Below are positions 2,099 to 31,372 of a stretch of DNA of 64,000 nt, piece by piece. Below the pieces are notes generated by a model. That model had not been told where the DNA came from. It was given only the letters and a program-made list of their open reading frames with translations, and ran no database searches. The DNA is from Rickettsiales bacterium. GTDB lineage: Bacteria; Pseudomonadota; Alphaproteobacteria; Rickettsiales; UBA8987. Location of the stretch: assembly GCA_020630095.1 (NCBI GenBank), contig JAHDCD010000001.1, positions 5,698-69,697 on the forward strand, in the 5' to 3' direction. A program made the translations under genes and the position numbers. Position 1 is the first letter of the stretch. Each line of letters begins with the position of its first letter.

Positions 2099-2099
2099 A

Positions 2100-2813: not shown

Positions 2814-2892
2814 ATAGTTATTATCTCATTAAAAGATTAACTTTTTGTTAAAAATTAACTTTTAATTTAGTTTTGTGGTCTATTAATAGGCT

Positions 2893-3879: not shown

Positions 3880-4159
3880 TCAGTTTTCTACAGAAACAAT
3901 ACAAGGCACAAAGAATATAGTGGGGCCTTGCGCAGCTAATTTGGATCAGTTCGCGGGTAAGAAAATTATCTTCCATTGTAATAAAGGTGGTGGTTCAGGT
4001 AGGCATGCGAATGCAATTGTTGATAGCTTACCTTACGATATTTATAATCTTGCAGGTGGTATTCAAGCTTGGAAAGAAGCTGGATTAGCTACAGTTGCAG
4101 GTAGCGCCGATGATGTTATTGCAGGTGCTGATTCAGAAGTTAAATCTTGCTCTATTTAG
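3863..4159 (+). pseudogene. 5'-truncated second copy of the rhodanese gene (lacks the first 22 codons and its own RBS and start)
   Basis: Identical to 1802..2098. The track ORF 3788..4159 reaches it only through an out-of-frame stretch of mscS. Confidence 0.6.
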
Positions 4160-4160
4160 A

Positions 4161-4874
4161 TTAAGCTACAGTCCAAGCTAGAACGCCTTTTCTATCCATT
4201 GCGCCATCCTTAATGATTTCTGCCCACATTTTATTTTCATAATTTGCATTAGCTTCTGGGAAGCCTTTTGGTTGTTTAATGGCTTCTGAAAATGCCATTG
4301 GTGGGCTATGTGCAATTGCATTGCCTATATTGGGGTTGTTGTGTTTTACAGTTACTCCGTGGAAAGTTGCTTCTGGCCATACTTCCTGTAATGCTCTTAT
4401 ATTTAATCCGCTTCCTACAGTTACCCAAACTTCTTTAGGGGGTTCTGATAATGGTAAGTTGGATGCTATATCAATTATACTTTGCCTAGTATCAGAATTC
4501 TCCATTCCTTCAGGAAGGACATGAGTTGAGCTATCGTTGTGATATTTTAAATTTGCTTCACCTACTAGGGTGGTTGCATTCATTTCTGAACCTTTCCAAA
4601 TTAGTTCAGCGCCTAATTCTTGGCATTCTTCTAAAATTTGAGACATTTTATCAGTTTCTGATAGGTAGATTATAGGTTTTTTATCCAAAGCATTGGCTGC
4701 TAAAGTTAAGGCTAGTGGACCTCCGCCTAGTGATGTTGTGCAAAAAACTATATTATCTTCTGGTATTTTTTGTAGGGCGTATTCTAAAGCTATCCTTTTA
4801 ATACCGCCTTCCACCTCATGTCCCATTACAATGGTAAGTCCCTCTTTTTCTGTGATATTTATATTAAACGACAC
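4161..4874 (-). CDS. ACC-deaminase/DcyD-family-like protein, copy 2 (identical to 2100..2813)
   Basis: Translation identical to copy 1. Confidence 0.4.
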   Translation of the reverse strand: MSFNINITEKEGLTIVMGHEVEGGIKRIALEYALQKIPEDNIVFCTTSLGGGPLALTLAANALDKKPIIYLSETDKMSQILEECQELGAELIWKGSEMNATTLVGEANLKYHNDSSTHVLPEGMENSDTRQSIIDIASNLPLSEPPKEVWVTVGSGLNIRALQEVWPEATFHGVTVKHNNPNIGNAIAHSPPMAFSEAIKQPKGFPEANANYENKMWAEIIKDGAMDRKGVLAWTVA

Positions 4875-4953
4875 ATAGTTATTATCTCATTAAAAGATTA
4901 ACTTTTTGTTAAAAATTAACTTTTAATTTAGTTTTGTGGTCTATTAATAGGCT

Positions 4954-6192
4954 ATGGAAGAAATTATTTTAGGCCTAAAAGAGTATGTATATTACATTTT
5001 TAATAATGTGGTTTCGTGGCTTTTTGCGCTTAATACGTATTATCAGGCAATATTAGCGGTAGTGGCATTTATTGCGGCTAGGTATATATCTGAATATGTA
5101 ATTAGAAAGTCTGGTTGGTTTAATAAGCCTAAAACTTCGGATAAGAACTTTAGATTAAAATTCTATAAATATAGGGCGAATAAGTTGGTTATGCCATTTT
5201 TGCTTATTGTATTCATGTATTTAGCGGTGGTACTTTGTAGGTATTATTTTGGTAGCGATTTGCTGGTTAACGCGTTGAAGCGCGCGGCGATTGTTTATGC
5301 TATTTATACATTTGTTAACGCTTACGTTAGAAACCCGATAGTTAGAGCGGTTGGTTACTGGGTGGTAGTGCCAGCGATGGTATTACATACTTTTAATTAT
5401 TTCTTTACCGCGGCGGAATATCTTGATGAAGTTGGATTTCAGATCGGTGAGGTAACAATTTCGATATATCGCTTATTATTAATTATTGTGGCTGCGGTTA
5501 TAACTATTTGGTTATTATCTATTGCGTTTACACAATCGGAAAGAATTGCAAAACGAGAGGAGCTGAAGAACAGGCAAAGTACTGTGCTATTGGTTAAGCT
5601 GTTAGAGTTTATAGTGTTTATGATAGTGCTACTTGTGGTGCTACAGGTTATTGGTTTTAGCATGCAGACTATTTATATTATGGCTGGCGTTATGGGAGCG
5701 GGGTTTGCATTGTCTTCCTTTAGTGTGTTTGAGAATATAATGGGCAGTATTGCGTTGTTATTTACGCGCTCTGTGCGTGTGGGTGATTTTATTGAAATTA
5801 GTGGTTCGCGTGGGGTAGTTAGAAGAAGGACTCCGCAGGCGATTGTAATTGAAAATGAAGGGCATCAAGAAGAGCATATTCCGAATAAAATATTCTCGCG
5901 TGAAAAGGTTAAGAATTACTCACGCCCAAGTGATGTTAATATGTACTCGTTCGATATAGATGTTGATGTGAAGATGAAAGATATTCAATATTTACCTAAA
6001 AAAATTGAAGAGAGGTTAGAAAAAAACACCTCTATTATGCATAAGCCTTACAAGCCATATTGTTACTTAAAAGAGATAACGGGCGATAGAGCATTCTTTG
6101 TGATTGAGTATTATGCTTCTGGCGTTGAAGGGATTCATGGTCAGCGTTTTAAGAATGATGTGATGTTTGATGTATTGTCGCTAGTTCGTTAA
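4954..6192 (+). CDS. Small-conductance mechanosensitive channel (MscS family), intact copy
   Basis: Multi-TM N-terminus followed by the MscS core LLFTRSVRVGDFIEISGSRGVVRRRTPQAIVIENEGHQEEHIPNKIFSREKVKNYS. Confidence 0.85.
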   Translation: MEEIILGLKEYVYYIFNNVVSWLFALNTYYQAILAVVAFIAARYISEYVIRKSGWFNKPKTSDKNFRLKFYKYRANKLVMPFLLIVFMYLAVVLCRYYFGSDLLVNALKRAAIVYAIYTFVNAYVRNPIVRAVGYWVVVPAMVLHTFNYFFTAAEYLDEVGFQIGEVTISIYRLLLIIVAAVITIWLLSIAFTQSERIAKREELKNRQSTVLLVKLLEFIVFMIVLLVVLQVIGFSMQTIYIMAGVMGAGFALSSFSVFENIMGSIALLFTRSVRVGDFIEISGSRGVVRRRTPQAIVIENEGHQEEHIPNKIFSREKVKNYSRPSDVNMYSFDIDVDVKMKDIQYLPKKIEERLEKNTSIMHKPYKPYCYLKEITGDRAFFVIEYYASGVEGIHGQRFKNDVMFDVLSLVR

Positions 6193-7937: not shown

Positions 7938-9929
7938 ATGAAAGGTCATGAATTTAGAAATGGTTCCATTCTAGCAATATTTTTAATTATTGCTGTAGCT
8001 ATCTTTGCGTATTTTGGTGCTTTAGGCACAATGGTTTGGACTTATGTTCCAGAGCATACTGACAAATTAAAATTCAATCCTCCTGCGACATTTAAAACTT
8101 ATGGTCATATAGTTAATACTAGAGCCAATGCTGTTAAACAGCGTGAAAAGTATTTAAACTATCTTGCTGAAAATAATGAAAAATTTAGGCGTGTAATTGC
8201 AGCAGTAAAGAAAGATAAAAGATATAAGCAGAAATATGGGAGTATCCTAAAAACGTATCAACAGGTGCGAGGTAAAATATCTAGCTATGATAAGTTAATT
8301 CAGAAGATTAATTTACGCCTTTTTATTCCCCCAGTAGCGGTACTTTTTATATTTCTAATGTTCTTGTGGATGGTGCGAGCTCCGCTTAAGGATTTCCGTC
8401 CGTTTAAAGCTAAAGAGAAACTGCATGGTGATGCAAAATGGGCTAAGAAAAAAGATGTTAAAAAGGCAGGTTTATTTGATAAACATGGGGTTCTTTTAGG
8501 AAAATGGGGAACGCAATATTTATGTGTTGGTGGTTATCAGCATTCGTTATTATTTGCACCTACTGGTTCTGGTAAAGGTGTTGGTTTTGTAATACCTAAC
8601 CTTCTGTTTTGGAAGGAAAGTGCTATAGTGCATGACATTAAATTAGAGAACTATGAGCTTACATCTGGCTACAGAAAGAAAAAGATGAAGCAAAAAGTTT
8701 TCTTGTGGAATCCGGCGTCTCCTAAGGGCTTTTCGCATTGTTATAACCCACTTGATTGGGTTGCGCGTGAATTAGGGCAGATGGTAGATGATGTGCAGAA
8801 AATTGCCAGTTTACTATTGCCGGAGCAGGAGTTTTGGCAGAATGAGGCGCGTTCATTATTCTTAGGGGTAACTTTATATTTATTATCTGTTCCGGAGAAA
8901 ACGAAAACATTTGGCGAGGTTGTGCGTACCTTACGCTCGGATGATTTTGTATATAATATGGCGGTAGTGCTTGATACATTGGGTGAGCAAATTCACCCCG
9001 TAGCGTATATGAATATTGCGGCGTTTTTACAAAAAGCAGATAAAGAACGTTCGGGTGTAGTTTCTACGCTTAACTCGTCGTTAGAACTTTGGGCTAACCC
9101 ATTAATTGATGCTACTACAGCTTCATCTGACTTTGACTTTAATCAATTTAAACATACTCCAAATACTGTTTATGTAGGCTTAACGCCTGATAACATTGAA
9201 CGTTTACAGCCATTAATGCAGATTTTCTATCAGCAGGCTGCGCAGATAATGACAGCGCATATGCCAACAGATGAAGAGAAAATTGGTGTATTGATGATGC
9301 TCGATGAGTTTCCAACACTTGGTGAAATGGCGATATTCAAACAGGGTATCGCGTATTTCCGTGGTTATAAGGTTAGATTGTTCTTAATTATTCAGGATAC
9401 GGAGCAGTTGAAGGATATTTATGAAGAGGCTGGTATGAATTCGTTTATTGCCAACGCCTCGTTCCGTATTACGTTTGCGGCGAATACTATTGAAACGGCG
9501 AAGATGATATCTGAGATGATTGGTAATAAGACCGTTAAGCAATATTCGCGTAATACACCGGTATTCCTTGACCTTAACCCTGCATCTCGTTCGAAGCATA
9601 TATCTGAAGGGCAGAGAGCATTGTTATTACCGCAGGAAGTTATTGGTTTACCGCGTGATGAGCAGATTATTTTAATTGAGTCTCAACCGCCGATAAAGTC
9701 TAAAAAGATTTTCTACTATAAGGATAAGTTCTTCTTAAAGAAGCTGATTGATCCTTCATTTGTTCCAAATCAAGAGCCTTACGATCCGAAGAAAAAGAAG
9801 AAAAAAGAAGAGGAGGCTAAGAAAGCCGCCGAAGAAGCTGAAAAAGCCAAGGCAGAAGAAGCTAAAGCTGAGATGGCTAAAAAAGAAGAGGTAAAAGAAG
9901 CTCCAGAAGAGAAAAAAGAAGAGGTCTAA
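7938..9929 (+). CDS. virD4: Type IV secretion coupling protein VirD4/TraG, with a Lys/Glu-rich C-terminal tail
   Basis: N-terminal TM helices; Walker A FAPTGSGKGVGFVIPN; Walker B MMLDEFPTLG; IIQDTEQL motif; last ~55 aa are K/E/A-rich. Confidence 0.9.
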   Translation: MKGHEFRNGSILAIFLIIAVAIFAYFGALGTMVWTYVPEHTDKLKFNPPATFKTYGHIVNTRANAVKQREKYLNYLAENNEKFRRVIAAVKKDKRYKQKYGSILKTYQQVRGKISSYDKLIQKINLRLFIPPVAVLFIFLMFLWMVRAPLKDFRPFKAKEKLHGDAKWAKKKDVKKAGLFDKHGVLLGKWGTQYLCVGGYQHSLLFAPTGSGKGVGFVIPNLLFWKESAIVHDIKLENYELTSGYRKKKMKQKVFLWNPASPKGFSHCYNPLDWVARELGQMVDDVQKIASLLLPEQEFWQNEARSLFLGVTLYLLSVPEKTKTFGEVVRTLRSDDFVYNMAVVLDTLGEQIHPVAYMNIAAFLQKADKERSGVVSTLNSSLELWANPLIDATTASSDFDFNQFKHTPNTVYVGLTPDNIERLQPLMQIFYQQAAQIMTAHMPTDEEKIGVLMMLDEFPTLGEMAIFKQGIAYFRGYKVRLFLIIQDTEQLKDIYEEAGMNSFIANASFRITFAANTIETAKMISEMIGNKTVKQYSRNTPVFLDLNPASRSKHISEGQRALLLPQEVIGLPRDEQIILIESQPPIKSKKIFYYKDKFFLKKLIDPSFVPNQEPYDPKKKKKKEEEAKKAAEEAEKAKAEEAKAEMAKKEEVKEAPEEKKEEV

Positions 9930-9983: not shown

Positions 9984-11252
9984 GTGCAAATTATTTTACA
10001 TTCCGATATTGAAGGCTCTGAAGAGAATTGCAAAAAATGGATGCAATGGCTTGAGCAGAAAGGAGCTGATGAAATAATTAAACATATGAATCCAGCTTTT
10101 GAGGAGAGGTTTCAATTAATTGATCAAATAGTGGCTGAACAGCGTAGCGAGTCTGAAATAGATGTTGAATCTAGCCTTACGGAAGGTTCATTAGCTCTTG
10201 TAGGAGATGAAGTGGAGTCTCACCTCAAAGAAATGGAAGTTTATGAAAAAAGAGTGAGGTCTCTTAAAAGTTCTGGTATTACAATAATTGGTAAATCCCA
10301 TTCCTCTAGGATGTATGATATAATGAGTGATCAACATGAAGCTAATGCTAAATTTCGATTAGGTGAAGCGTATTTTAGTAGAAATGACCCTGATGGGCCA
10401 ACGAAACTTTCTGCAGAAGAGGCTTTTCTTAGAAGAGCTTATGTTGGTGGTATGCATTTTTCACCTATGCCAATTTTCATTAATCAGAAAGCTGTAGATG
10501 AGCTTGAGTGTGATTGGTTTGAAACAGATTTTCCAGAAGTTAATTCTTTTTATGATTATGGTTTTCTTGATAAGAAGGTTGGCTCATTAGAAAAAGAGAG
10601 TGGATTAGAAAGGGTTTATTTTGGAGTTATAAAAATATCTGATGAAGGTGCATTAGAATTGTACGAAGAAGATTTGTTAGAAGAAGCTTCAACAATATTA
10701 ACAAGTTTAATGGAAAACTTTGGTCATGATTTTTTTCATACGTTAACTATTGCAGAAGGGATTGATGGACCAGATATTATATATGATTTAGAAGTTACAT
10801 CTTTTAGAGATGCTAATAAAACCAATGGGTTAGAAGAGTTTAGTTTACAACTAAACCAAACATTGTTTCTAATGGCTAGAGAGGATGAAAGTGATTGGTA
10901 TAAAGGTTTATTAGAGCTAGTGGATGAAACTGCATCTTTTTTAAGTAAGGTAAAAAATACTTGTTCTAAAGAGTTATATGAAGCTACAGAAGAAATGGCA
11001 TTTGAGTTAATAGCTAACTTTGTAGATAAAGATAAATTACGAGAATCTAAGCCTGAAAGTTGGTCGAAAATACTAGCAGAATCTAGCGTTATATCTAGCG
11101 ATGCTTTTATATATCACGGAGATGCGGTTGGTGTAACAGGTGTTCTGAAGAAGTTAATGGGAGCGATAGAAAAGGATTATGGCTATATTCAGTCTCAACC
11201 ACCTAGTAGAGATATATTGCCAAATAGGTATGATCCAGACTTGAGAATTTAG
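9984..11252 (+). CDS. Hypothetical acidic protein (422 aa) immediately downstream of virD4; no signal peptide
   Basis: Long ORF with a GTG start. No motif recognised. Confidence 0.5.
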   Translation: MQIILHSDIEGSEENCKKWMQWLEQKGADEIIKHMNPAFEERFQLIDQIVAEQRSESEIDVESSLTEGSLALVGDEVESHLKEMEVYEKRVRSLKSSGITIIGKSHSSRMYDIMSDQHEANAKFRLGEAYFSRNDPDGPTKLSAEEAFLRRAYVGGMHFSPMPIFINQKAVDELECDWFETDFPEVNSFYDYGFLDKKVGSLEKESGLERVYFGVIKISDEGALELYEEDLLEEASTILTSLMENFGHDFFHTLTIAEGIDGPDIIYDLEVTSFRDANKTNGLEEFSLQLNQTLFLMAREDESDWYKGLLELVDETASFLSKVKNTCSKELYEATEEMAFELIANFVDKDKLRESKPESWSKILAESSVISSDAFIYHGDAVGVTGVLKKLMGAIEKDYGYIQSQPPSRDILPNRYDPDLRI

Positions 11253-11291
11253 GTACTTCCGCGCTGGTTTTATGTCAGTAATAAGAAGGCT

Positions 11292-11903
11292 ATGTTTATT
11301 GATACTAGATTTCCTGAAGACGTTGCATATGAGGCGGTAAGCTCTACCGCGTTTTCTACAAATGTTACTGAACTTAATAATGGCTACGAGCAACGTAACA
11401 TGAATTGGATTATGGCAAGGAGAGAGTTTGAGGTTACGTCTGCTAGGCAATGTGAGGCGCGTAAAGATGAGATTTTAAATCTATATAATAATGCAAAAGG
11501 TAGGGCGAATAGTTTCCGCTTTAAGGATTGGAGTGATTATAAGGTGCAGAATCAAGAAATTGCGATTGCTGATGGTGTTAGGGATAGTTTTCAATTAATT
11601 AAAAATTATAAAATAGCTTCAGAAACTCATATTCGTAATATAACTAAGCCTGTTAGTGGTTCGGTTGTTGTGTATATGGATGGAAATCAGGCTATAGAGG
11701 GTGTGGATTATAGTTTAGACTACTCTACGGGCATGGTTTTATTTATAAATATTCCAGCTTTAGCAGAGGTAATTACTGCAGATTTTGAATTTGATAATGA
11801 GGTGCGTTTTAATAATGATAGTCTTGATATTAAGCTGTTAGATGAAAAATCTTATAAAATTAGCAAAGTAAAACTTATTGAAATAAAAGCTAAGAGTGCC
11901 TGA
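11292..11903 (+). CDS. GTA/phage distal-tail protein homologue (RcGTA g12-like, DUF2460 / TIGR02217)
   Basis: The N-terminus FIDTRFPEDVAYEAVSS...TNVTELNNGYEQRNMNW...GRANSFRFKDWSDYKV matches the TIGR02217 pattern. Confidence 0.75.
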   Translation: MFIDTRFPEDVAYEAVSSTAFSTNVTELNNGYEQRNMNWIMARREFEVTSARQCEARKDEILNLYNNAKGRANSFRFKDWSDYKVQNQEIAIADGVRDSFQLIKNYKIASETHIRNITKPVSGSVVVYMDGNQAIEGVDYSLDYSTGMVLFINIPALAEVITADFEFDNEVRFNNDSLDIKLLDEKSYKISKVKLIEIKAKSA

Positions 11904-13856: not shown

Positions 13857-16800
13857 TTAGAAGTTATACTTATAACCTAATTTAAGCACTGAATCTGATT
13901 CTTCACCACCTAAGCCTTGTTCATACTTAAAGTGACCAAATAAATTATGCTTGTTAATTTCGTTATCGTTAAACATTGAGCCATCAACACCAACACCAAG
14001 TCTTAAGCGACTGCTTGTTTCATTTTCTTTATAAGAAGTGAATGATGTACCAAGTATTTCAGCTTCAATATTTTCTTCCATTTTTATAATGTCAGCTACA
14101 ATTTCAGTTTCAATATAAGGTGAAACTAACATGTTATTTAAGATGCCGATTCTTTTATCCATTATTGCTCTAGCACCTAAGTTTGCAGATGCATAGCTAG
14201 TTGAATAATGGCTTACGTCTAAGTCTGAGATGTTATCACCAGTTTCTAGTGCTTCACCTGAGCGGATATATTGATATTCTAAGCCACCATATGGTCTGAA
14301 TAATACAGAACCTGCATGAAGATCATAACCTGCTTCGCCTTTAAAACCTAAAACATAAGTGGCAAAGTCTGAAACGCTTGTTGATGATGCTGAACCTGCA
14401 TTTGTTGTTCTTGTTACATCAGTTTTTGCTGCGTTTAAACTTGCGATACCACTTAGCTTAATGCCGTTATCTAATGCATATGAACCATAACCACCAACAG
14501 ACACAATACGAGAGCTTGAATCAAAGCCTGAATCTTCATCAATATCTTTAGTTACATAAGATACCATTGCACCTAGTTTGTAATTATCTTGTAAGCAATC
14601 ACCTGCTACAAATACACCATCAGATGATGTTGTATATTTATGGGCATTTTCACCGCCTGAACCATTACCATTAATGTAACCGCCGTAAGCTGAACATTCA
14701 TAGTTTTTAACTTTCTTATCTTTACCGAACTCGCCTACGTTATTGTAGTCGCCGGATTTACGATTTGCTTTATCTGAGGCAAATATTCTGTCATGTGCGA
14801 TATTTAAGAAGTTTGATACCGCTCTTGAGATTGAGTTGTTAGCTGAAATATAACCTTCAGCACTCATAGACTCTAACGCTGCTGTACGCTTTGTTAAATC
14901 ACTGTCATTTATATTAGCAAGTAGCGCTTGAACATCAGGAATAATGAATGTGTCATTTTCTTGAGCGGCTTTTGAGATTGAATTACAGATAGACTTAGCT
15001 TCATCAGATAAAGATTCTACATTAGCACAATCAGCTTTTGCGTAACCTAATACGGCATTTAATTCACCAGTCTCTTGATCTACTTCTTTTGTCCAAGCGT
15101 ATAGGTCGTCTTTTACAGGAGCTTCAATAACAACACCATTGTCAATAATTGCACCATTTGATCGTACTACAGTAACTTTATCACCTGGTTTTAATGAAAG
15201 TAGTTCTTCTTTATTTCTTACATTGATTTCAATAACGCCATCTAAAATTGCATTACCAGCAACTTTTAATGGTTCAATAACTGTATCTACATCATCAAGT
15301 TTTTCTTCTTCAGTAGTTTGAGTTACAATAATTTTACCATCTTCAGTTTGAACGATATCACCAACTATCATCACATTATCGCCACTTATTTCGCCTTCGT
15401 TAACTATTCTGTCAGATAAAATTACGTTTTTACCGCCACCTAGGTTAACAACACCGCCTTGAGCTATTCTTGAATTTTTTGCATCAATTGCATCATTACC
15501 TGCACCAAGATTAACTTCTGTATCTATTACTTCAGATGCTACTACAAGGTCGCTGTTTTCAGTGCCTTCAATATCTTCCTCAGTACCTTCGGATACATCA
15601 ATATTTACGCCACCTTCTTCATTACCAGCTATTTCAGCATCTTTTAATGCAGTTACAACGCATTCCCATTTACCGTTTTTACGTTGAGCAACTTCATCGT
15701 TTTCTTTATCACATAAAGGTTTTTCATCATCAATATTTGCGATTTGAGAATTGTTCCCACCGCTATTGCCATCTTCATCGCCGCCGCCACCAAGTGCATT
15801 TTGTGCTAGGCCAAGTAAACCCATGATAGCTTGAAGTGGATTAAATGCTCCGCTACCACCTAATAAAGATGATGCAGCACCTAATGGGCCATTTGAACCT
15901 GAGCCACCATAGTTGCTAGAACCACCATTACAATCTGCACAATATGATCCACCATTATATGAACCCGCTCCATCAGAAACTTTGGTTGGTTGAGGACCTT
16001 GATAGATAGGAGTGCCATCAGGTGCTGTTCCAACAATTACACCAGTTTCTTGACCAGGAATTTGAGAGATATTATTTGGAACATCAGCTTCAGCTAGGCT
16101 AAATGGATCATCAGTAGTATAAGTGATATTACCTTGAGCATCTACTATACCTGTAATTTTCTTACCATTAAGCGTACCTTCAACTACTTTTGTAACATCC
16201 TCATTAAATACAGGGTTACCTTTAGAATCTTTTACTATGCTACCATCAGCATTTGTTTTGTAGCGTGGTAATTCTTCTTTTGTAACTTTAAAGCCTGAGT
16301 ATGTAGGATCTGAACCATCAGGGTTAAGTGTTACAGTTTTTGTTTCTGTGCCACCTGCCTTATTACCACCAGATTTTAAGAATTCTGGGCTTAATTTAGA
16401 CAAATCTTGTTCTGAAGTTTGTACAGAAGCAGGTTGTGTTCCGTTTATTGTATCAACAACTTCTTGATTAGTTTTGCCTTGTCCTTTTAAATCGGTGATT
16501 TGTTCTCTAGTAGCGTTACTGAAATTACCATTAACGAATTCAACGTCACCATTTTTACCTATATCAACAATTTTATCTTTTTGAGCTATTGTAGAAGGTT
16601 GGTTAGTTTCTACAGTTTCTTTTCTGATTCTAAATTCATCATTTACAGATTTCACAGCATCTTCAACAGAAGCGCCATTTGCTCTGGCATTTCTGTATGC
16701 TTCATTAACATTTTCTGTACCAACAAGACGACCAGTATTTGTCATATGTGCGGCGCCATCTTCATTTACTCTTAATACATTATTACCTTCATGGTGTATT

Positions 16801-19800
16801 GCATGTTCAGGAAGATTTGAACCTGCATTATTAGTAATTATTTCTTTAGTTGTAGGTTGGGTTGTTGTACCTCTTGTTTTAGGAGCTGCTTCGCCACCTA
16901 ATTTTTTACCAATATTGTTTACGCCACCTAATGCCTCAACATCTGAAGCACTAATTTTTGTACCATCAGCAAATGTAGCAAAACCATCATCACCTACTGG
17001 TGAAGCTTCAAATACGCCATCTTTAGTACGAGAAATGAAATTTTTACCAGTACCAGTTTGGCCATCTACACTGCCTTCAAATGCCTCAAACTCTGCATTT
17101 GCATTAGTTGTACTTAACTTAGGTGCGGTTTTTACAGTTTTTGTAATAGTTCTAGGCTTTGCAGCTGATGCGTTTATACCACCGCCACCAAAACCTTTTG
17201 TATCGCCTAGACTTAATAGTTGGTCTGGGTCTGTAAAAGTTTCAGTACCACTAAGAATACTGCTTATTTTTTGATCAGATGCACCTAAATCTCTATAAGA
17301 TTCAACTAGGTCACGTACTTCTTTGGGAGCATTATCAGCTAATACTAAATCACCACTGGTTGAAGTAGAAAATACATTATTACCACCGCCGTTTGCTTTC
17401 CATGCTGCTTCTGCTGCCTTAGCTGCATTGTTTGCAGGTGGAAAGCGGTGAGTGAACATACCTCTAAACTTTTTACGAGATGCTCTACCGCGATCAACAT
17501 CTTCCCACTCATGAGCAACGCGTGCTTTGTTAAATCTATCTAAGGCATCTGGCATAGCATCTAATTTTCTTATTAATGCCGCTCTATCATTTGTAGAGAA
17601 ATCACCAGTTGCTCTTTGTAATACATTAAGCAAGCCGCCATATTGTTGTTTATAGCCATGACCTCCTTTAGGAATACCTGCTCCGCGGTGATGTACAGTA
17701 TCAGCTATTTGAAGTTGTAAACCTGGGTTAGTGGCATGTTTTGTGTAAGGTTCAGATAGTTCACGGAAATATTCTTTCGCATATCTTTTTGCAGCGGCAT
17801 GTTGTCCGTTCTGAACTAATGATCTTAAATGTTTTGCTTCATTTGGTTGATATCTTGCAGTAATACCGGCAACTTCGTATGCACCACCACCATCACCTGC
17901 AGGTGGATAGTAAACTTTAACATTGCCGTTTTTATCTAATCTAGCTTCTCTGCCGAAAGTAAATTCAGAAGGATCAAAGCCTGCTATTGAATTAGAAGTG
18001 GATTTTTTAATAACACCACTTTCTCTTAATTTTGATGCTTGGCTATTTAAATCAGAAAGTTTTTTTGTTTTTTCAGCTTTCTCAATTTTTTCACGTTCAA
18101 TTCTTTCTTGTTCTAATTTTGCTCTTTCATTTGCTCTAAACTCATCTGGTGTTTGAGTGGTAAGCGCATTGTGAGTCTCGTTTAGTTTACCTTCAATTTT
18201 ATCCCAATCTGCACCATTTATTACTAAATCATTATATTCTTGAGCAATTCTTCCTCTTATTTCTTTAGGAACGCTTTCATCAATTTCTAAGGCGCCATCT
18301 TGTAGTACTCTTACTGGGTTAGGTGCACTTGATGTAGTAGACGAAGTTGTTGTTCTAGGTATACTTGTAGAAATACCACCACTTGTTTCAGTAGGTGAAG
18401 AATTTGGAGTAGTAGCTGGCTCTATCGGTTGGAATTCAGGATCAAATACTGCATTGTTTGCAATTGCTTGACTTTGTTCTTCTGTAAATGGCTTTGAAGT
18501 TACATTTTCTTGTGGAGCTGTTTGGTTATTATTAGAAGTAACATTTCTGTTAGTTTGACCATTAGTCATATATGAAGTGCCATCATATTTTAGTACTAAA
18601 GTATCATTACCTTTTTGTACTTCAGCTCTCATATCAGCTATAAATTGATCATATACTTGCTGACGAGAAAGACCGCTATTATTACCATTAATACATTCAG
18701 GAGCTATACAGCCACTTGTACCAGGGTAGCCATTTCTACTAATGTGAGAAATTATACCAGTACGTAAACGATTTAGTTTTGGATCCCACATTTCTTCGAA
18801 TCTAACAACTTGTCCACCAGACCAAGATCGACTATCTCCTTCAATTTTTGTAACATCCCATTCACCTTCTGGTGCTGGGCCACTACCTCTGGCGCCTGAA
18901 ACAACGGTATAAGCTGTACCATTTAAAACTAAAGTTGAAGTACGTGCAGGATTACCAAGGTTATCAGTGTGCCCATTATTTTGTAATTGTGTGCCACTAA
19001 CCCTTCTTTCATCTCTAAGGTCTCTAGTGATTTCTGGAGGGCCAGAAGATTGTGTGCTTTGACTTGGAGCACTTGGTTGCTCTTGAGCTACTTCTTCTAA
19101 TTTAGGTTGCTCTGGTTGAGGGTAAGAAGGGCTAGTAGTAGGTCTGTTATTATTACTTATTTGACTACCTAAGCCACTAAGGCCACTCAAGATATCTGAT
19201 AATGATGAGTTGTTATCAGAATTGAAATCTACATTAGAATTGGGATTTCTTTGTACTGGAGATGAACCTGGAGTATAATTTTCTCTGTATGTATCAGCTC
19301 TAGAAGTGTTTGAACTTATAGCAGTAGGTGTGCTAGTTGGAGTTGAGCTAGCTCTGGGTGGAGTTACACTAGCATTAATACCACCAGAGTTTGACGTATT
19401 AGTAGTAGGAGAGTTTCTTTGCGTTAATGTTGGAGGTGTATAATTTGTATTATTAGATGTATTTTGCGAATTAGGGCTACCACCAATATTTCTAACATTA
19501 GCTAAAGGATTTGAAGTATTCGAAGTACTATTAGATACAGCGCCTGTAGGTGTATTTGATACAGGAGTTGTAGGTGGAACATAAGTTCCAGTTGATGGCG
19601 CACCTATATTCTTTTCAGATTGTGATACACCAGGTCTTCCATTAACTGGTGGGATATAAGCAGTATTAGGTTGGCTGTAAGAGTCACCTCTTCCTGGAAT
19701 GGTAGAATTAGGAGATGTATCACCACCTAAACCTTCGCCATTATTTGTTATAGGAAGTTCACTTCTTTCAGGGTTGTCGTATGTAGGTTGTGCATGCGGT

Positions 19801-21920
19801 GAGTTCGAAGCAAAGCCTTCACCTGTGCCTCTGTTATTTGATGTATTAGGAGCATTACCTTGATGAGAAGGAGGTGTGTATTGTGGGTTATTTCTAGGGG
19901 CCGCACCTGATAAGTCTGGGTTGTTAACTTGAGCAATATTAGAGCTTGTATTTCCCAGGCTACCATTTTCTAGTGGTTCACCGATACCAAATCTGTTTAA
20001 GCTATCAGAAATGTTTTGAGAATTTGTGATGTCGCTTATAGAGGTGTTATTTGTAGGTAAGTTTGGAGTATTTGTCTCAAAGCTTCTTTGTAAGCCATCA
20101 CCAACGGTTTCGCCACCTGTATAAGGGTTATTATTAACAACTCTTAGAGGTTGTGGGGCCTCAGTTATTCTTTGGTACTCTTCCCAAGAAATTTCACGAG
20201 GTTCATTAGCTGCACTTAAGTTACCATCTAAAGGATCAAATGGCGTTGCAGATTCGCGGTCTAAGCTGATACCATTTCTAAGAGTATCATTTACTTGACC
20301 AACTCTATCGCTGATACCATTACCAATATCTTTTACTTTGTCAGTGATTGGGCTAACTATTTTATCTGTAATAAACTCATTAGCGGTATTTATACCTTCT
20401 TTAAAATTATTTACGCCTTCACCAATAGCTTCACGAGTATTTGTAACGGCATCGCTTAAGAAATCTCTTGTTGAATCAAGGAATGAGCCATTTGAACCAT
20501 TACCAACAGCTTCACCATTAAGTGATACTTCACCAACACCTTCAAAACCGCCTTGCTCTAAATATCTAGAAACATCAGCATTTGAGATATCACCATTTAA
20601 GCTTAACGACGATGTGCCATCACCACGAACAGATATTTCGTTTAATTGATTAATATCATTTAAGCCGTTAACTGAAATGTTAGAACCATTCTCAGCAAAT
20701 ATATCACCAACTGATGAATTTGATGCGTTTACAGATAAATCTGAATTATCTAAGTTAAACTGTCCTAAGTCTGAACCATTTACGCTAATTTCACTACCAG
20801 TTGCAAATGTAGGAGTTTCAAGAGTTCTTGCATTTACGCCATCATAGCCAATCTTTGCGTTTTCAAGGTTAAAGTTATTTACAGAGATAGGTGCGCCATC
20901 AGATGTAATTGATAATTCACTATCTGTGATATTGAATTCATCACCGCCACCGATTGTAAAGGCACCTTCATCGCCAAATATTTCGTCAGTAAGGGTAATA
21001 TCCTTACCTGTAATGTTTTCTAAATTAAATGTATCATTATCAGAGATAGAACCAATTCTACCGAATTCAGTACCATCTAATGTAGCATTGTTCTCCAAAG
21101 CACTTTCTAGTGAGCCATCTTCAATTGAACCACCTTCAAATTTGATATCAGTAATTTCACCTTCAGCGGTAAGTTCACCTACGTCAGTATCTTTGGCGTC
21201 AAAAAGTACATCAGTTTCACTTGTTAATTCAGCTTCACCAATTGTTGTTCCTTCAGCATTAAGATCAATTTCGCCACTTTCAGCAAATAATGAATCAAAA
21301 TCAGTACCAATTGCTTCAAGATCAAAATTATCAGCACCTTGCGCTCTGAAATCACCAATTTCAGATCCATCAAATGTTACGTCCTCTGTACCATCTGCAA
21401 ATATTGAATCACTTGTAAGGTTGTTACCATCTATTTTTAGACCTGTTGTTTCTAGGTCCTGAATTTTAGTGTCAGTTGCATTTACATCACCTGTAACTTC
21501 AGCGTTGATAGCTTCAGAACCTTCAAATGTACCTGCGCCGTCTATTTTTACTTCAGCAGCATTACTTTCAATTAATGTTGTATCGCTACCTGAATCTAAT
21601 TTATTTGTATCTGTACCAGATATTTCACCACCTTGTGCGGCTACTATTTCATTAGCTGTTGAATTTGTAACTGCTTCACCAGAGGTTGTTGTGATATTTT
21701 GTGCATCTACATTATTTGCAGCTTCCACTTCACCATCAACAACTGTTTGGAATTTAATTTTGCCAAAGCCATGGTTGGCGAATAGATTGTCGTATGCGCT
21801 ATATGAATTGTTGTAGAAGTAAGAATCTTGCGCTGATGCGTTGCTTTGAACAGCCGTAATTAATAATGCTGCTAGTGCGCCTATATAGAATTTGAATATT
21901 TTATTACCTAATTTTTGCAT
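13857..21920 (-). CDS. Giant type Va autotransporter (2,687 aa) with a multi-module passenger
   Basis: Sec signal peptide (...AVQSNASA). Acidic G/D/E/T/S/N repeat region. About 400 aa of P/S/T/N-rich low complexity. Internal enzyme-like modules. The C-terminal ~300 aa have alternating beta-strand character and end ...LKLGYKYNF (terminal aromatic, autotransporter-barrel style). Confidence 0.85.
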   Translation of the reverse strand: MQKLGNKIFKFYIGALAALLITAVQSNASAQDSYFYNNSYSAYDNLFANHGFGKIKFQTVVDGEVEAANNVDAQNITTTSGEAVTNSTANEIVAAQGGEISGTDTNKLDSGSDTTLIESNAAEVKIDGAGTFEGSEAINAEVTGDVNATDTKIQDLETTGLKIDGNNLTSDSIFADGTEDVTFDGSEIGDFRAQGADNFDLEAIGTDFDSLFAESGEIDLNAEGTTIGEAELTSETDVLFDAKDTDVGELTAEGEITDIKFEGGSIEDGSLESALENNATLDGTEFGRIGSISDNDTFNLENITGKDITLTDEIFGDEGAFTIGGGDEFNITDSELSITSDGAPISVNNFNLENAKIGYDGVNARTLETPTFATGSEISVNGSDLGQFNLDNSDLSVNASNSSVGDIFAENGSNISVNGLNDINQLNEISVRGDGTSSLSLNGDISNADVSRYLEQGGFEGVGEVSLNGEAVGNGSNGSFLDSTRDFLSDAVTNTREAIGEGVNNFKEGINTANEFITDKIVSPITDKVKDIGNGISDRVGQVNDTLRNGISLDRESATPFDPLDGNLSAANEPREISWEEYQRITEAPQPLRVVNNNPYTGGETVGDGLQRSFETNTPNLPTNNTSISDITNSQNISDSLNRFGIGEPLENGSLGNTSSNIAQVNNPDLSGAAPRNNPQYTPPSHQGNAPNTSNNRGTGEGFASNSPHAQPTYDNPERSELPITNNGEGLGGDTSPNSTIPGRGDSYSQPNTAYIPPVNGRPGVSQSEKNIGAPSTGTYVPPTTPVSNTPTGAVSNSTSNTSNPLANVRNIGGSPNSQNTSNNTNYTPPTLTQRNSPTTNTSNSGGINASVTPPRASSTPTSTPTAISSNTSRADTYRENYTPGSSPVQRNPNSNVDFNSDNNSSLSDILSGLSGLGSQISNNNRPTTSPSYPQPEQPKLEEVAQEQPSAPSQSTQSSGPPEITRDLRDERRVSGTQLQNNGHTDNLGNPARTSTLVLNGTAYTVVSGARGSGPAPEGEWDVTKIEGDSRSWSGGQVVRFEEMWDPKLNRLRTGIISHISRNGYPGTSGCIAPECINGNNSGLSRQQVYDQFIADMRAEVQKGNDTLVLKYDGTSYMTNGQTNRNVTSNNNQTAPQENVTSKPFTEEQSQAIANNAVFDPEFQPIEPATTPNSSPTETSGGISTSIPRTTTSSTTSSAPNPVRVLQDGALEIDESVPKEIRGRIAQEYNDLVINGADWDKIEGKLNETHNALTTQTPDEFRANERAKLEQERIEREKIEKAEKTKKLSDLNSQASKLRESGVIKKSTSNSIAGFDPSEFTFGREARLDKNGNVKVYYPPAGDGGGAYEVAGITARYQPNEAKHLRSLVQNGQHAAAKRYAKEYFRELSEPYTKHATNPGLQLQIADTVHHRGAGIPKGGHGYKQQYGGLLNVLQRATGDFSTNDRAALIRKLDAMPDALDRFNKARVAHEWEDVDRGRASRKKFRGMFTHRFPPANNAAKAAEAAWKANGGGNNVFSTSTSGDLVLADNAPKEVRDLVESYRDLGASDQKISSILSGTETFTDPDQLLSLGDTKGFGGGGINASAAKPRTITKTVKTAPKLSTTNANAEFEAFEGSVDGQTGTGKNFISRTKDGVFEASPVGDDGFATFADGTKISASDVEALGGVNNIGKKLGGEAAPKTRGTTTQPTTKEIITNNAGSNLPEHAIHHEGNNVLRVNEDGAAHMTNTGRLVGTENVNEAYRNARANGASVEDAVKSVNDEFRIRKETVETNQPSTIAQKDKIVDIGKNGDVEFVNGNFSNATREQITDLKGQGKTNQEVVDTINGTQPASVQTSEQDLSKLSPEFLKSGGNKAGGTETKTVTLNPDGSDPTYSGFKVTKEELPRYKTNADGSIVKDSKGNPVFNEDVTKVVEGTLNGKKITGIVDAQGNITYTTDDPFSLAEADVPNNISQIPGQETGVIVGTAPDGTPIYQGPQPTKVSDGAGSYNGGSYCADCNGGSSNYGGSGSNGPLGAASSLLGGSGAFNPLQAIMGLLGLAQNALGGGGDEDGNSGGNNSQIANIDDEKPLCDKENDEVAQRKNGKWECVVTALKDAEIAGNEEGGVNIDVSEGTEEDIEGTENSDLVVASEVIDTEVNLGAGNDAIDAKNSRIAQGGVVNLGGGKNVILSDRIVNEGEISGDNVMIVGDIVQTEDGKIIVTQTTEEEKLDDVDTVIEPLKVAGNAILDGVIEINVRNKEELLSLKPGDKVTVVRSNGAIIDNGVVIEAPVKDDLYAWTKEVDQETGELNAVLGYAKADCANVESLSDEAKSICNSISKAAQENDTFIIPDVQALLANINDSDLTKRTAALESMSAEGYISANNSISRAVSNFLNIAHDRIFASDKANRKSGDYNNVGEFGKDKKVKNYECSAYGGYINGNGSGGENAHKYTTSSDGVFVAGDCLQDNYKLGAMVSYVTKDIDEDSGFDSSSRIVSVGGYGSYALDNGIKLSGIASLNAAKTDVTRTTNAGSASSTSVSDFATYVLGFKGEAGYDLHAGSVLFRPYGGLEYQYIRSGEALETGDNISDLDVSHYSTSYASANLGARAIMDKRIGILNNMLVSPYIETEIVADIIKMEENIEAEILGTSFTSYKENETSSRLRLGVGVDGSMFNDNEINKHNLFGHFKYEQGLGGEESDSVLKLGYKYNF
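13860..14750 (-). other. Autotransporter beta-barrel translocator domain (aa ~2390-2687; approximate)
   Basis: Amphipathic beta-strand pattern, Gly/aromatic-rich, C-terminal YKYNF. Confidence 0.7.
17421..17993 (-). other. Possible GH108-lysozyme / PG_binding_3-like module inside the autotransporter passenger (aa ~1310-1500; approximate)
   Basis: GDGGGAYEVAGITARY and LQLQIADTVHHRGAG...LLNVLQRA loosely resemble GH108 (DpGGxTxxGIT) and its helical partner domain. The EGG catalytic motif was not found. Confidence 0.3.
18576..18938 (-). other. Tlde1/DUF2778-like (YkuD-type L,D-transpeptidase fold) module inside the autotransporter passenger (aa ~995-1115; coordinates approximate)
   Basis: VSGARGSGPAPEGEWDV ... 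RLRTGIISHISRNGYPGTSGCIAPE fits the pattern SG...GPiPxGxY ... R.gf.iH......SxGCI. Confidence 0.55.
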
Positions 21921-23670: not shown

Positions 23671-24498
23671 ATGAAAAATATATCTAACGCATTGAAAAAC
23701 CATATTTCACAAGAAGTTACTACGCTGGCTTCATGTATTTTATTAAAGTTGCGGGATGGAGCTTTAATTGGCTTCACTTCTTTAGATCAAGATATTGAAT
23801 TTGAAGGAGTTTTGTATGAATCTTGTATGGGGGTAGACATTTTAGGGGCGAATACTCAGAATGATTTAAGTAATGATGATTTAGATTTTACCAGCGTGAT
23901 AGATTCGCCGTTAATGGACGAGAAAGAGTTGCGCGCGGGAAGGTTTGACCATGCCGAAGTTAGTGCGTTTTTAGTTAATTATGAAGATTTAACGCAAGGT
24001 AGGTTAATGCTTCGTTTTGGTTATTTAGGTGAGATAAAACATTCTAATGGTCGCTTTGAGGGGAAAGTTCATGGTTTAGGTAAAAAGCTTGATAAAGTTC
24101 AGGGTGATTTATATTCTAAAATTTGTCGTGCGAAGTTTGGCGATAGTAAATGCGGTTTTGATACTTCTAGCGTTACATTTACTGGTGTAGTAAGCGCGGT
24201 GGAATCAAATAAAGAGTTTACCGATAGCACACGTGCGGAGGATTCAGGGCATTTTGATAATGGTGTGATTAAGTTTATATCCGGCGCTAATGCAGGGCAA
24301 AGTATTGAAATTAAAAAGAGTTTTGCTGAGCGTGTTACGTTAATGATGGCTTTGCCGTATGATATTGCGGTAGGAGATAGTTACGAGATTACGCAAGGTT
24401 GCGATAGAGTATTTAGTACTTGCGTTGAGCGTTATAATAATGCGATTAATTTTCGTGCGGAACCGCATATTCCTGGAACATCTGCTATTGTAGGCTAA
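23671..24498 (+). CDS. GTA/phage tail hub protein homologue (RcGTA g13-like; DUF2163 / TIGR02218 with BR0599 C-terminal domain)
   Basis: TTLASCILLKLRDGALIGFTSLDQDIEFEGVLYES at the N-terminus. The C-terminus GVIKFISGANAGQSIEIK...GDSYEITQGCDRVFSTCVERYNNAINFRAEPHIPG matches the BR0599 pattern. Confidence 0.75.
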   Translation: MKNISNALKNHISQEVTTLASCILLKLRDGALIGFTSLDQDIEFEGVLYESCMGVDILGANTQNDLSNDDLDFTSVIDSPLMDEKELRAGRFDHAEVSAFLVNYEDLTQGRLMLRFGYLGEIKHSNGRFEGKVHGLGKKLDKVQGDLYSKICRAKFGDSKCGFDTSSVTFTGVVSAVESNKEFTDSTRAEDSGHFDNGVIKFISGANAGQSIEIKKSFAERVTLMMALPYDIAVGDSYEITQGCDRVFSTCVERYNNAINFRAEPHIPGTSAIVG

Positions 24499-30871: not shown

Positions 30872-31372
30872 TTAGAAACCTTGAACGTTTCTTCTAACGT
30901 TAATTGTACCGCCGCTTCTAGTTCTAACTGAAGTAGACTTGCGAACAACTTCGCCACCTTTTCTAACTACAACTTTCTTTACAACTTTGCCAGTTTTAGG
31001 GCAAAGTTCTTTACCTGTGTGTGGGCATAATAACTTACCAGATTTAGGGCAAATTTTTCCACCTGTTTTTGGACAGATTTTAGCGCCAGTAGTTGGGCAG
31101 ATCTTTGCACCAGTTTTAGGACAGTATTTGTTACCAGTAACTGGACAAATTTTAGCTCCAGTCTTAGGGCAAATTCTACCTTCAGAATGTAAACGCTTAC
31201 CAGTTAAAGGGCAAATTTTACCAGCTTTTTTGTGGTGATGCTTACCAGAGCTGTGTGAATGTCCGTGTGCTTTATGCTCAGAGCATTTGCAATTAGCACA
31301 AGCGTTGGCGTTTAATGAAAAGCCAGCAATTGTTAAAATTGATAAGGCTGTTAATGTCAGTAATTTTTTCAT
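30872..31372 (-). CDS. Secreted basic protein with an N-terminal Cys/His cluster and nine CPx(T/S)G octapeptide repeats
   Basis: Signal peptide ...LNANA; CANCKCSEHKAHGHSHSSGKHHHKK; repeats [IL]CPxTGxK with an 8-aa (24-nt) period across nt ~30986-31216. Confidence 0.6.
   Translation of the reverse strand: MKKLLTLTALSILTIAGFSLNANACANCKCSEHKAHGHSHSSGKHHHKKAGKICPLTGKRLHSEGRICPKTGAKICPVTGNKYCPKTGAKICPTTGAKICPKTGGKICPKSGKLLCPHTGKELCPKTGKVVKKVVVRKGGEVVRKSTSVRTRSGGTINVRRNVQGF

Follow-up and report, generated by a model that had tools for sequence, protein, structure and literature searches.

The passenger of a large autotransporter encoded in the window, the whole 64,000-nucleotide stretch of Rickettsiales DNA analysed here, contains a divergent domain of the Tlde1/YkuD/MEROPS C82 superfamily, located at 18576..18938 on the minus strand and corresponding to aa 995-1115 of the 2,687-aa protein. 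This domain keeps the residues that align with the active site of the Salmonella effector Tlde1a and is, on balance, likely to be displayed on the surface as a Cys/His L,D-peptidase that attacks the stem peptides of peptidoglycan outside the producing cell.

Autotransporter architecture and gene neighbourhood

The gene that carries the module (13857..21920, minus strand) is a single intact open reading frame with an ATG start. Its N-terminus, read by eye from the translation, resembles a Sec signal peptide (MQKLGNKIFKFYIGALAALLITAVQSNA/SA); the predicted signal spans approximately aa 1-30 (21831..21920, minus strand) and comprises a Lys-rich n-region, the hydrophobic stretch FYIGALAALLITAV and an SNA/SA cleavage-like site. 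At the other end of the protein, aa 2414-2648 (13977..14681, minus strand) match the Autotransporter beta-domain PF03797 (E = 2.4e-29, 103.3 bits against a cut-off of 26), which identifies the beta-barrel translocator. With a predicted signal peptide, a single-chain passenger and a C-terminal barrel, the host protein is, judged from its sequence, a classical type Va autotransporter. The GC content of the gene varies between 0.34 and 0.42 along its length, and the module shows no compositional break.

The plus strand of 18576..18938 is riddled with stop codons when translated, whereas the minus strand is in frame with the autotransporter gene. Upstream of the module, a low-complexity linker rich in P/S/T/N extends over approximately aa 600-990 (18951..20123, minus strand), with a combined P, S, T, N, G and Q fraction of 0.58-0.80 per 50-aa block across aa 601-1000. 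Downstream, an N/T/S/P-rich linker follows at approximately aa 1116-1200 (18321..18575, minus strand), the same fraction being 0.60-0.66 in aa 1101-1200. The initial annotation had placed the module inside an autotransporter passenger between P/S/T/N linkers, and both the PF03797 match and the composition bear this out. The distance from the module to the barrel is about 1,300 residues.

A second globular module lies further along the passenger, at approximately aa 1306-1500 (17421..18005, minus strand). It has 63 homologues with 41-59% identity, including phage-encoded ones, eight of which are found in IMG/VR viral contigs. Searches of Pfam, PDB and PHROG gave no assignment for this module, leaving a GH108-like identity guessed by eye unsupported. 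In tblastn searches the match for the second module covers aa 1306-1493, and the rest of the passenger outside these residues has no match to phage loci or elsewhere in the window.

The autotransporter gene is neighboured by genes for DnaB and for a 438-aa protein without a Pfam match. Elsewhere the window (GC 37%) encodes VirD4, a giant VirB6 and GTA-like genes, as well as a fusion of VirB6/TrbL with a CHAP peptidoglycan hydrolase domain. No T6SS genes were recognised among the window open reading frames that were read or scanned, amounting to about half of those of at least 150 aa, and no immunity gene was seen at the autotransporter locus.

Predicted catalytic motifs and family relationships

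The module contains two motif blocks, which the initial annotation had already singled out as signatures of the Tlde1 domain; both align in register with Tlde1a, the first with IPEGNY and the second with R115, H121 and C131. Scripted placement puts VSGARGSGPAPEGEW at aa 1007-1021 and TSGCIAPE at aa 1068-1075, confirming the earlier numbering of the cysteine as Cys1071. The first block, G1014-P-A-P-E-G-E-W1021 (18858..18881, minus strand), matches the GP(I/L)PxGxY block of Tlde1 proteins and aligns with A42-IPEGNY of Tlde1a. In the second, His1059 (18744..18746, minus strand), the predicted catalytic base, aligns with Tlde1a H121, and Cys1071 (18708..18710, minus strand), the predicted nucleophile within T-S-G-C, aligns with C131. 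The two are spaced by 12 residues, and R1053, six residues N-terminal of His1059, aligns with Tlde1a R115. Roles for H121 and R115 and the identity of C131 as an active-site residue have been described for Tlde1a (PMC9638812).

These positions are also conserved in the unnamed family to which the module belongs. In the family alignment (A2), R73, H79, T88, G90 and C91 are invariant and correspond to R1053, His1059 and the T-x-G-C motif; P1017 and G1019 are likewise invariant, and the module retains every family-invariant column (Y, G, P-x-G, D, R, H and T-x-G-C). In a further alignment (A4) the invariant Tlde1 columns are P44, R115, H121, S128, G130 and C131, with Thr in place of S128 in the window sequence. 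Other positions have changed: Ser stands where the (S/T)HGC motif has its second His, and the module has not kept the Asp found next to the catalytic His in most relatives. Its only cysteines are Cys1071 and Cys1076, the latter five residues past the former and inside an insertion found in the window sequence alone; Cys1076 could form a disulfide bond with the nucleophile.

A phmmer search of the module against 1.84 billion representative sequences recovered two true relatives, P0003 and P0004 (E = 7e-5 and 2e-4). A match to a eukaryotic fibronectin-III repeat protein (P0002), which hit a short S/T-rich stretch 12 times, was judged spurious, and a word-indexed homologue search with the single module returned no matches. 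Searching with a profile extended the set to 149 relatives, which, clustered at 90% identity, makes a family of about 150 clusters; the module is 26-36% identical to its relatives. A family HMM made with the window sequence left out matched the six-frame translation of the window at a single site, aa ~994-1110 of the autotransporter (E = 5.7e-11), indicating that the module is single-copy there, and hhalign of the window sequence against the family gave a probability of 98.1%. Together, phmmer, the profile search, the family HMM and hhalign define a homology envelope of approximately aa 993-1116. With significant similarity over the whole domain of about 115 aa, the module is, at the sequence level, a member of this unnamed family, which Pfam does not cover.

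Most members of the family are from Myxococcota, with a few from Planctomycetota, and most of the proteins have an N-terminal peptidoglycan-binding domain. The relatives carry PG_binding_1 with or without PG_binding_3, or, in one case, two SH3b domains, and 121 of 122 relatives have the shared domain at the C-terminus. Among the few close relatives of the module is the phage protein P0003, in which the domain ends a 607-aa chain; its gene lies in the internal virion block of a T7-like, 41-kb podovirus, between a tail tubular B-like gene and a gene for a 1,292-aa protein. This is the slot in which podoviruses encode wall-piercing enzymes (compare T7 gp16 and phiKMV gp36). The called-gene contexts of three relatives contained no T6SS, immunity-like pair or conserved neighbour; one of the three adjoins a lone Phage_T4_gp19 gene.

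Comparison of alignments places the family, and the module with it, in the wider superfamily. Against the published Tlde1 superfamily alignment, hhalign gave a probability of 97.3% (P = 2.3e-11, 107 columns) for the family and 94.4% (P = 9.2e-8) for the window sequence alone, and an independent MAFFT re-alignment gave 96.7% (E = 3.8e-10). The alignments between the family and Tlde1 span 98-108 columns, extending beyond the motifs. In 21 controls with the family alignment as query (one reversed, 20 column-shuffled), the probability did not exceed 0.9% and P was at least 0.065. These profile comparisons indicate that the module is a genuine homologue within the Tlde1/YkuD/MEROPS C82 superfamily.

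Matches to existing Pfam families remain below threshold. Pfam and NCBIfam searches with the whole protein and with excised segments returned nothing for the module even at E <= 10. Among 23 family members, sub-threshold Pfam matches, covering both motif blocks, were to DUF5675 in 19, Tlde1_dom in 15 and YkuD in eight. For PF10908 (DUF2778), with its gathering threshold of 30.1 bits, the scores of relatives and of the family consensus are 13.4-17.2; for YkuD (PF03734, cut-off 23.4 bits) the best relative has E = 5e-4, and four looked at singly reach 13-16.7 bits; and for DUF5675 (PF18925, cut-off 26.7 bits) the family consensus reaches 20.7 bits (E = 3.8e-4), the window module itself having no match. 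The domain therefore appears roughly equidistant, at sub-threshold level, from DUF5675, Tlde1_dom and YkuD. DUF5675 has been reported as C82-like in phage lysins, an assignment that is a structural prediction without experimentally defined activity (bioRxiv 10.64898/2026.04.11.717860). The initial annotation had proposed a Tlde1/DUF2778-like L,D-transpeptidase fold, to be checked by an HMM search. That check failed, with no PF10908 or YkuD match to the module at E <= 10 and relatives at 13-21 bits against cut-offs of 23-30; homology at superfamily level holds (profile-profile probability 97%), but membership of PF10908 does not. Because the PF10908 and YkuD scores fall below their cut-offs, the family is better described as a sister family than as part of DUF2778.

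Structure prediction adds limited detail. An AlphaFold2 model from the 23-sequence alignment has a pLDDT of 60.1, with low confidence at the active-site loop, and the single-sequence model has a pLDDT of 40. In the low-confidence model the order of elements (strands, a helix after the Cys, a last strand) is the same as in Tlde1a (PMC9638812). Its top Foldseek match in the PDB is a YkuD L,D-transpeptidase, 5bmq, at a non-significant level (E = 0.69, TM 0.21), and a Foldseek search against BFVD gave nothing significant. Searching PDB sequences with the family profile retrieved Csd6 weakly (E = 0.86). BNR-like matches of the same profile, and phmmer matches of the module to carbonic anhydrase and to an OmpA-like 'GHTDN' motif, were attributed to chance.

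Proposed function and alternative explanations

The architecture and the conserved residues suggest the following mechanism. The Sec signal would direct the autotransporter to the periplasm and the C-terminal barrel would export the passenger, after which the module, flexibly tethered, would fold at or past the cell surface. With Arg1053 holding the substrate, His1059 and Cys1071 would together attack the L,D bond that follows meso-diaminopimelate in peptidoglycan stem peptides, by way of an acyl-enzyme intermediate. The reaction would end in cleavage, of the L,D-carboxypeptidase or endopeptidase type, or in D-amino-acid exchange. Its substrate would lie beyond the producer's outer membrane, in the peptidoglycan walls of other bacteria sharing the niche or in shed muropeptides. 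From outside the outer membrane, however, an enzyme has no access to the sacculus of Gram-negative neighbours unless something else helps it. A broader and more tentative proposal, possible though doubtful, is that the autotransporter has captured two phage-related envelope-attacking modules on flexible tethers and represents an undescribed, T6SS-independent delivery route for Tlde1-type enzymes, with which an intracellular Rickettsiales-like bacterium attacks co-resident bacteria or edits shed muropeptides sensed by its host.

The designation of the module as a toxin in the initial annotation was an assumption: no immunity gene, T6SS or effector-immunity pair is seen here or at the loci of the three relatives. 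The lack of an immunity gene beside the autotransporter would also suit a module that, while being exported or in place of export, acts from the periplasmic side on the wall of its own cell, where it would open the sacculus locally for a 2,687-aa protein or link the protein covalently to peptidoglycan. The VirB6/TrbL-CHAP fusion in the same window agrees with this, as it shows that the organism does fuse wall-cutting modules to envelope machines that have to act in cis, and tethering of beta-barrel outer-membrane proteins by L,D-transpeptidases is established in Alphaproteobacteria. Such a role is nevertheless unlikely. Classical type Va systems export everything N-terminal to the barrel, their passengers are unfolded while crossing the periplasm, and the module is held far from the barrel, flanked by linkers of the kind usual in surface-extended stalks; its relatives, moreover, resemble exported or ejected lytic proteins more than housekeeping enzymes.

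It is quite unlikely that the module is a non-catalytic remnant, or a peptidoglycan-binding, ligand-binding or spacer domain in a Sca-like, adhesin-type autotransporter. The low identity to relatives, the lost SHGC histidine, the insertion directly after the catalytic Cys and the low model confidence at the active-site loop are all compatible with decay; however, the module has kept R1053, H1059, T1068, G1070 and C1071 as well as the P-x-G block. Most other Tlde1 subfamilies of the published alignment have SEGC, SNGC or SAGC, and because they too are without the SHGC histidine, its loss in the module is not a sign of decay.

More doubtful again is an active Cys/His enzyme of the C82 fold that an intracellular bacterium has repurposed to act on something other than peptidoglycan, for instance a protein or peptide of a host or symbiont. 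The Rickettsiales-like gene set (VirD4, giant VirB6, GTA-like genes, GC 37%) is in keeping with such a lifestyle, and the passenger would face a host cytosol or vacuole that is poor in peptidoglycan. Against this, all characterised superfamily members act on mDAP-linked bonds of peptidoglycan or of the Lpp-peptidoglycan link (PMC9638812, together with general background), and the nearest relatives are fused to peptidoglycan-binding domains. The last alternative, that two short motifs co-occur by chance in a low-complexity protein, could draw on the absence of a direct Pfam match and the non-significant Foldseek result, but is effectively refuted by the family HMM built without the window sequence, which matches this site alone (E = 5.7e-11), and by the profile-profile comparison (P = 2e-11 against P >= 0.065 in the 21 controls, over 98-108 aligned columns).

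If the module is active as the surface-displayed L,D-peptidase favoured here, Tlde1-type L,D-peptidase/transpeptidase chemistry would extend beyond T6SS effectors and periplasmic housekeeping enzymes to a type V surface protein, and a peptidoglycan-active class would join the known functions of autotransporter passengers. A wall-peptide enzyme on the exterior of a cell from an obligate-intracellular-like lineage could serve interbacterial antagonism inside the host or alter the muropeptides sensed by host receptors. The practical value of the finding is modest pending the activity and target of the module. The family itself, absent from Pfam and mostly found in predatory Myxococcota, connects Tlde1 with DUF5675 and YkuD, and annotation would benefit from a profile of it.

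Comparison with known systems

Tlde1a of S. Typhimurium (PDB 7UMA) shares with the module a small domain, a GP-x-P-x-G-x-aromatic block, an Arg six residues before the His, an (S/T)-x-G-C nucleophile motif and a short His-to-Cys spacing (10 residues in Tlde1a, 12 in the module); in the model, a helix and a terminal strand would follow the Cys as they do in Tlde1a. The module differs in lacking the Tlde1a capping subdomain, as its inter-block region of about 30 aa, compared with about 65, aligns to gaps in the Tlde1a insertion. It also has no cysteines at the positions of the Tlde1a disulfides C37-C111 and C66-C86 (PMC9638812), and Tlde1a H129 is replaced by Ser. Tlde1 is delivered by the T6SS, whereas the module is carried by a type Va autotransporter with no Tldi1-like immunity gene seen.

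The YkuD enzymes (PF03734), such as LdtMt2, E. coli LdtD and H. pylori Csd6 (4XZZ), belong to the same superfamily and have the His/Cys dyad in common with the module. However, the YkuD motif HXX14-17(S/T)HGCh (PMC9638812) does not fit the module, where His and Cys stand closer together and there is no second His. The module is also much smaller than these enzymes, in a context unlike that of a periplasmic housekeeping enzyme. DUF5675 (PF18925), the C82-like phage-lysin domain, is the commonest weak Pfam match of the family, and an association with phages is common to both.

In podoviruses, peptidoglycan hydrolases are built into the virion, as in the N-terminus of T7 gp16 and the C-terminus of phiKMV gp36, and the relative P0003 is encoded in the equivalent virion gene block. 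The window domain, in contrast, sits in a cellular secretion protein. The known podovirus virion enzymes are, to our knowledge, glycosidases or transglycosylases and not peptidases of the C82 fold.

The module turned up in no other autotransporter in exhaustive and profile searches of proteins, and full-text searches of the literature brought up no account of an architecture like this one; the domain has been known so far from injected toxins, phage particles and cell-wall-binding proteins and not from autotransporter export. Large Sca-type autotransporters are usual in Rickettsiales genomes. A review of autotransporters lists serine proteases, GDSL lipases, adhesins and VacA-type toxins, and a peptidoglycan-active passenger class was not found in it (PMC9289746). 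The window protein has a predicted signal peptide, a very long passenger and a 12-strand-type beta-domain in common with type Va autotransporters such as SPATE proteases, the EstA lipase and rickettsial Sca proteins. In the window passenger the globular modules are threaded along extended disordered linkers instead of sitting on a beta-helix.

Position and boundaries of the module

The 2,687-codon reading frame of the autotransporter is unbroken (13857..21920, minus strand), and the minus-strand frame of 18576-18938 is part of it, coding for residues 995-1115; the plus strand of the same interval translates with many stop codons. The Autotransporter beta-domain at residues 2414-2648 (E=2.4e-29; 103 bits, cut-off 26) is the sole significant Pfam domain of the entire protein, and the N-terminus reads, from its sequence, as a Sec signal peptide. 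This arrangement agrees with the placement of the module inside an autotransporter passenger. The P/S/T/N linkers that the initial annotation described on both sides were likewise recovered, with P, S, T, N, G and Q accounting for 58-80% of residues 601-1000 and 60-66% of residues 1101-1200 in 50-residue blocks. A scripted position check reproduced both sequence blocks and their numbering: residue 1007 is the first of VSGARGSGPAPEGEW, TSGCIAPE begins at residue 1068, making the motif cysteine Cys1071, and His1059 lies 12 residues before it. GC content is even along the gene and the module is therefore no compositional island.

The module family and its relation to Tlde1

The module, searched within the whole protein or excised, had no Pfam match at E<=10, including to PF10908 (Tlde1_dom, formerly DUF2778), and no NCBIfam match at the same threshold. 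A phmmer search against PDB sequences returned chance matches only, and a word-indexed homologue search found none. When 1.84 billion representative proteins were searched exhaustively with phmmer, the matches were the autotransporter itself, no further autotransporter bearing the module, and two true relatives: P0003 (607 aa, E=7e-5) and P0004 (378 aa, E=2e-4), the latter having a signal peptide and pairing a C-terminal module with two bacterial SH3 domains. A fibronectin-repeat protein from this search was spurious and was dropped.

A profile built from these three modules identified 149 proteins at E<=0.01, most of them about 220 aa long, and the genome loci recovered belong to Myxococcota MAGs and a few Planctomycetota. 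Among the matches listed, PG_binding_1 (PF01471) occupies the N-terminus in most of 120 relatives, frequently together with PG_binding_3 (PF09374); the module-homologous stretch has no Pfam annotation and forms the C-terminal end in 121 of 122 proteins. Most Myxococcota relatives whose sequence was read (P0005-P0124; loci L001-L022, L028-L033) have PG_binding_1 right at the start and no obvious Sec signal peptide. Three relatives on long contigs were inspected for gene neighbours and shared no conserved ones; one adjoins a lone Phage_T4_gp19 tail-tube gene. The invariant columns of the family alignment (Y, G, P-x-G, D, R, H and T-x-G-C) are all kept by the autotransporter module, and a family HMM built without the autotransporter sequence gave a single match in the six-frame translated window, the module (E=5.7e-11). 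On these sequence comparisons, the module is part of a real, unannotated protein family.

Scanned one by one against Pfam, 23 family members gave weak matches to DUF5675 (19), Tlde1_dom (15) and YkuD (8); these matches extend from P-x-G-x-Y through G-C and score 13-21 bits, where the Pfam cut-offs are 23-30 bits. DUF5675 of phage lysins is described as structurally similar to C82, the MEROPS family of L,D-transpeptidases (2026 preprint, bioRxiv 10.64898/2026.04.11.717860). The family was compared by hhalign with Tlde1 superfamily members taken from Lorente Cobo et al. 2022 (PMC9638812, Alignment S1), in which the transcribed numbering of the Salmonella effector Tlde1a agrees with that paper (C37, C66, C86, W93, R99, C111, R115, Y119, H121, H129, C131). 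The family aligned to Tlde1 at 97.3% (P=2.3e-11, 107 columns), the family without the autotransporter sequence at 97.1% (P=4.9e-11, 106 columns), and the autotransporter module alone at 94.4% (P=9.2e-8, 108 columns); against a MAFFT re-alignment of the Tlde1 set the score was 96.7% (E=3.8e-10, 98 columns). A reversed template and 20 column shuffles reached at most 0.9% (P>=0.065). GPAPEGEW of the module pairs with AIPEGNY of Tlde1a, R1053 with R115, each six residues ahead of the histidine, H1059 with H121, and C1071 with C131. Given these scores and residue equivalences, homology of the module to the Tlde1 superfamily is well supported at the sequence level; the proposed Tlde1/DUF2778 identity thus stands as superfamily membership (hhalign 97.3%) and not as a match to PF10908.

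A single-sequence AlphaFold model of the module reached a pLDDT of 40, and one using a 23-sequence alignment reached 60. In the latter, the predicted order of strands, post-Cys helix and final strand is the same as in Tlde1a (PMC9638812). Foldseek with this model gave no significant PDB match, the best being the L,D-transpeptidase 5bmq (E=0.69, TM 0.21), and nothing significant in BFVD.

Genomic context and phage-borne relatives

The window has a GC content of 37% and includes genes for VirD4, DnaB, Dxs, fumarase and a PPDK-like protein. The VirD4 coupling-protein gene lies at 7938-9929; a DUF2460 (GTA-type) gene (11292-11903, E=3.7e-59) and a second GTA/phage-tail-like gene (23671-24498, judged from translation only) flank a tRNA-Pro/tRNA-Tyr pair, a 438-aa gene, the autotransporter and dnaB. 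The gene upstream of the autotransporter is dnaB, and the 438-aa product encoded downstream has no Pfam match and no evident signal peptide. All five neighbour proteins examined are singleton clusters, and no immunity-like or T6SS gene was recognised in the inspected parts of the window. A VirB6/TrbL-type T4SS protein of 1,843 aa (55775-61306, plus strand; PF04610, E=7.6e-14) has a peptidoglycan-hydrolase domain of the CHAP type in its N-terminal part (PF05257, E=4e-6; 27.6 bits, cut-off 26), the second wall-cutting module of the window joined to an envelope machine. Taken with the GC content and the VirD4, DnaB, Dxs, fumarase, PPDK-like and GTA-like genes, this VirB6/TrbL protein suggests that the window comes from a Rickettsiales-like alphaproteobacterium. 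Elsewhere, 1800-3860 and 3861-5921 form a 100% identical tandem duplication of 2,061 bp, either a very recent event or an assembly artefact, giving 328-aa and 412-aa MscS-like ORFs and two 237-aa PALP-like antisense ORF copies. Translation of 30872-31372 (minus strand) reads as a 166-aa secreted-looking protein with about ten tandem CP(K/V/T)TG(A/K/G)KI repeats and a His-rich stretch.

The relative P0003 comes from an IMG/VR viral contig of 41,029 bp (IMGVR_UViG_3300045141_000064, locus L024; gene at 10001-11824) and bears the Tlde1-like module at its C-terminus. The gene order is portal, capsid, 195-aa, 822-aa and 173-aa genes, P0003, then 467-aa and 1,292-aa genes; by comparison with the T7 gene order, we take this position to be the internal virion (ejection) protein block of a T7-like podovirus. 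This block is the site of wall-piercing enzymes in podoviruses.

A second globular module of the same passenger (residues ~1306-1500; 17421-18005, minus strand) is 41-59% identical to stand-alone proteins of ~290 aa (63 matches), with conserved motifs E-A-R-x-D and DGGG-x-x-E-V-AGIT. IMG/VR viral contigs (38-74 kb) encode eight of its relatives, and at the single locus inspected for neighbours the gene adjoins one of 2,914 aa. Both mid-passenger globular modules therefore have phage-encoded relatives; the rest of the passenger has no match to the phage loci of the second module. Pfam, PDB and PHROG searches gave the second module no assignment and did not support a GH108-like identity suggested by eye.

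Proposed role and comparison with known systems

We favour, with slightly better than even confidence, the reading that the module is exported to the surface as an L,D-peptidase or transpeptidase of the YkuD/C82 superfamily with a Cys/His active site, and that it would act on peptidoglycan outside the producer. In the mechanism we infer, the type Va autotransporter would carry the module on flexible tethers, exposing it at the cell surface, where the active enzyme would attack the mDAP-linked L,D bond in the stem peptides of peptidoglycan. The CHAP-VirB6 fusion, also encoded in the window, raises the possibility of action in cis on the wall of the producer itself, which is unlikely but the strongest of the alternatives. 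The module retains its catalytic residues, and a non-catalytic role is somewhat less probable again. The partners of its relatives are linked to peptidoglycan, and a different substrate is improbable. Chance resemblance is hardly credible.

The module differs from Tlde1a in several respects. Its two blocks are separated by ~30 aa rather than the ~65 aa of Tlde1a, and the capping subdomain of Tlde1a is therefore absent; counterparts of the cysteines forming the two conserved disulfides of Tlde1a are also lacking. H129 of the Tlde1a SHGC motif is replaced by Ser; other Tlde1 subfamilies also lack this histidine, having SEGC, SNGC or SAGC (alignment of PMC9638812). The His-to-Cys spacing is 12 residues, compared to 10 in Tlde1a, 11 in Myxococcota relatives, and 14-17 from His to (S/T)HGC in the canonical YkuD motif. 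An insertion private to the module directly follows the catalytic-position cysteine and contains a second one (GC1071-IAPE-C1076).

Full-text literature searches returned nothing combining an autotransporter with YkuD or LD-transpeptidase, and in a term search of a 2022 review that classifies autotransporter passengers by function (PMC9289746), "peptidoglycan" occurred once and no peptidoglycan-active class appeared. We rate the enzyme superfamily as known and the sister family and its carrier as new. Among phages, the P0003 module would place a C82-fold enzyme in a podovirus slot that in known examples, T7 gp16 and phiKMV gp36, holds glycosidases or transglycosylases.
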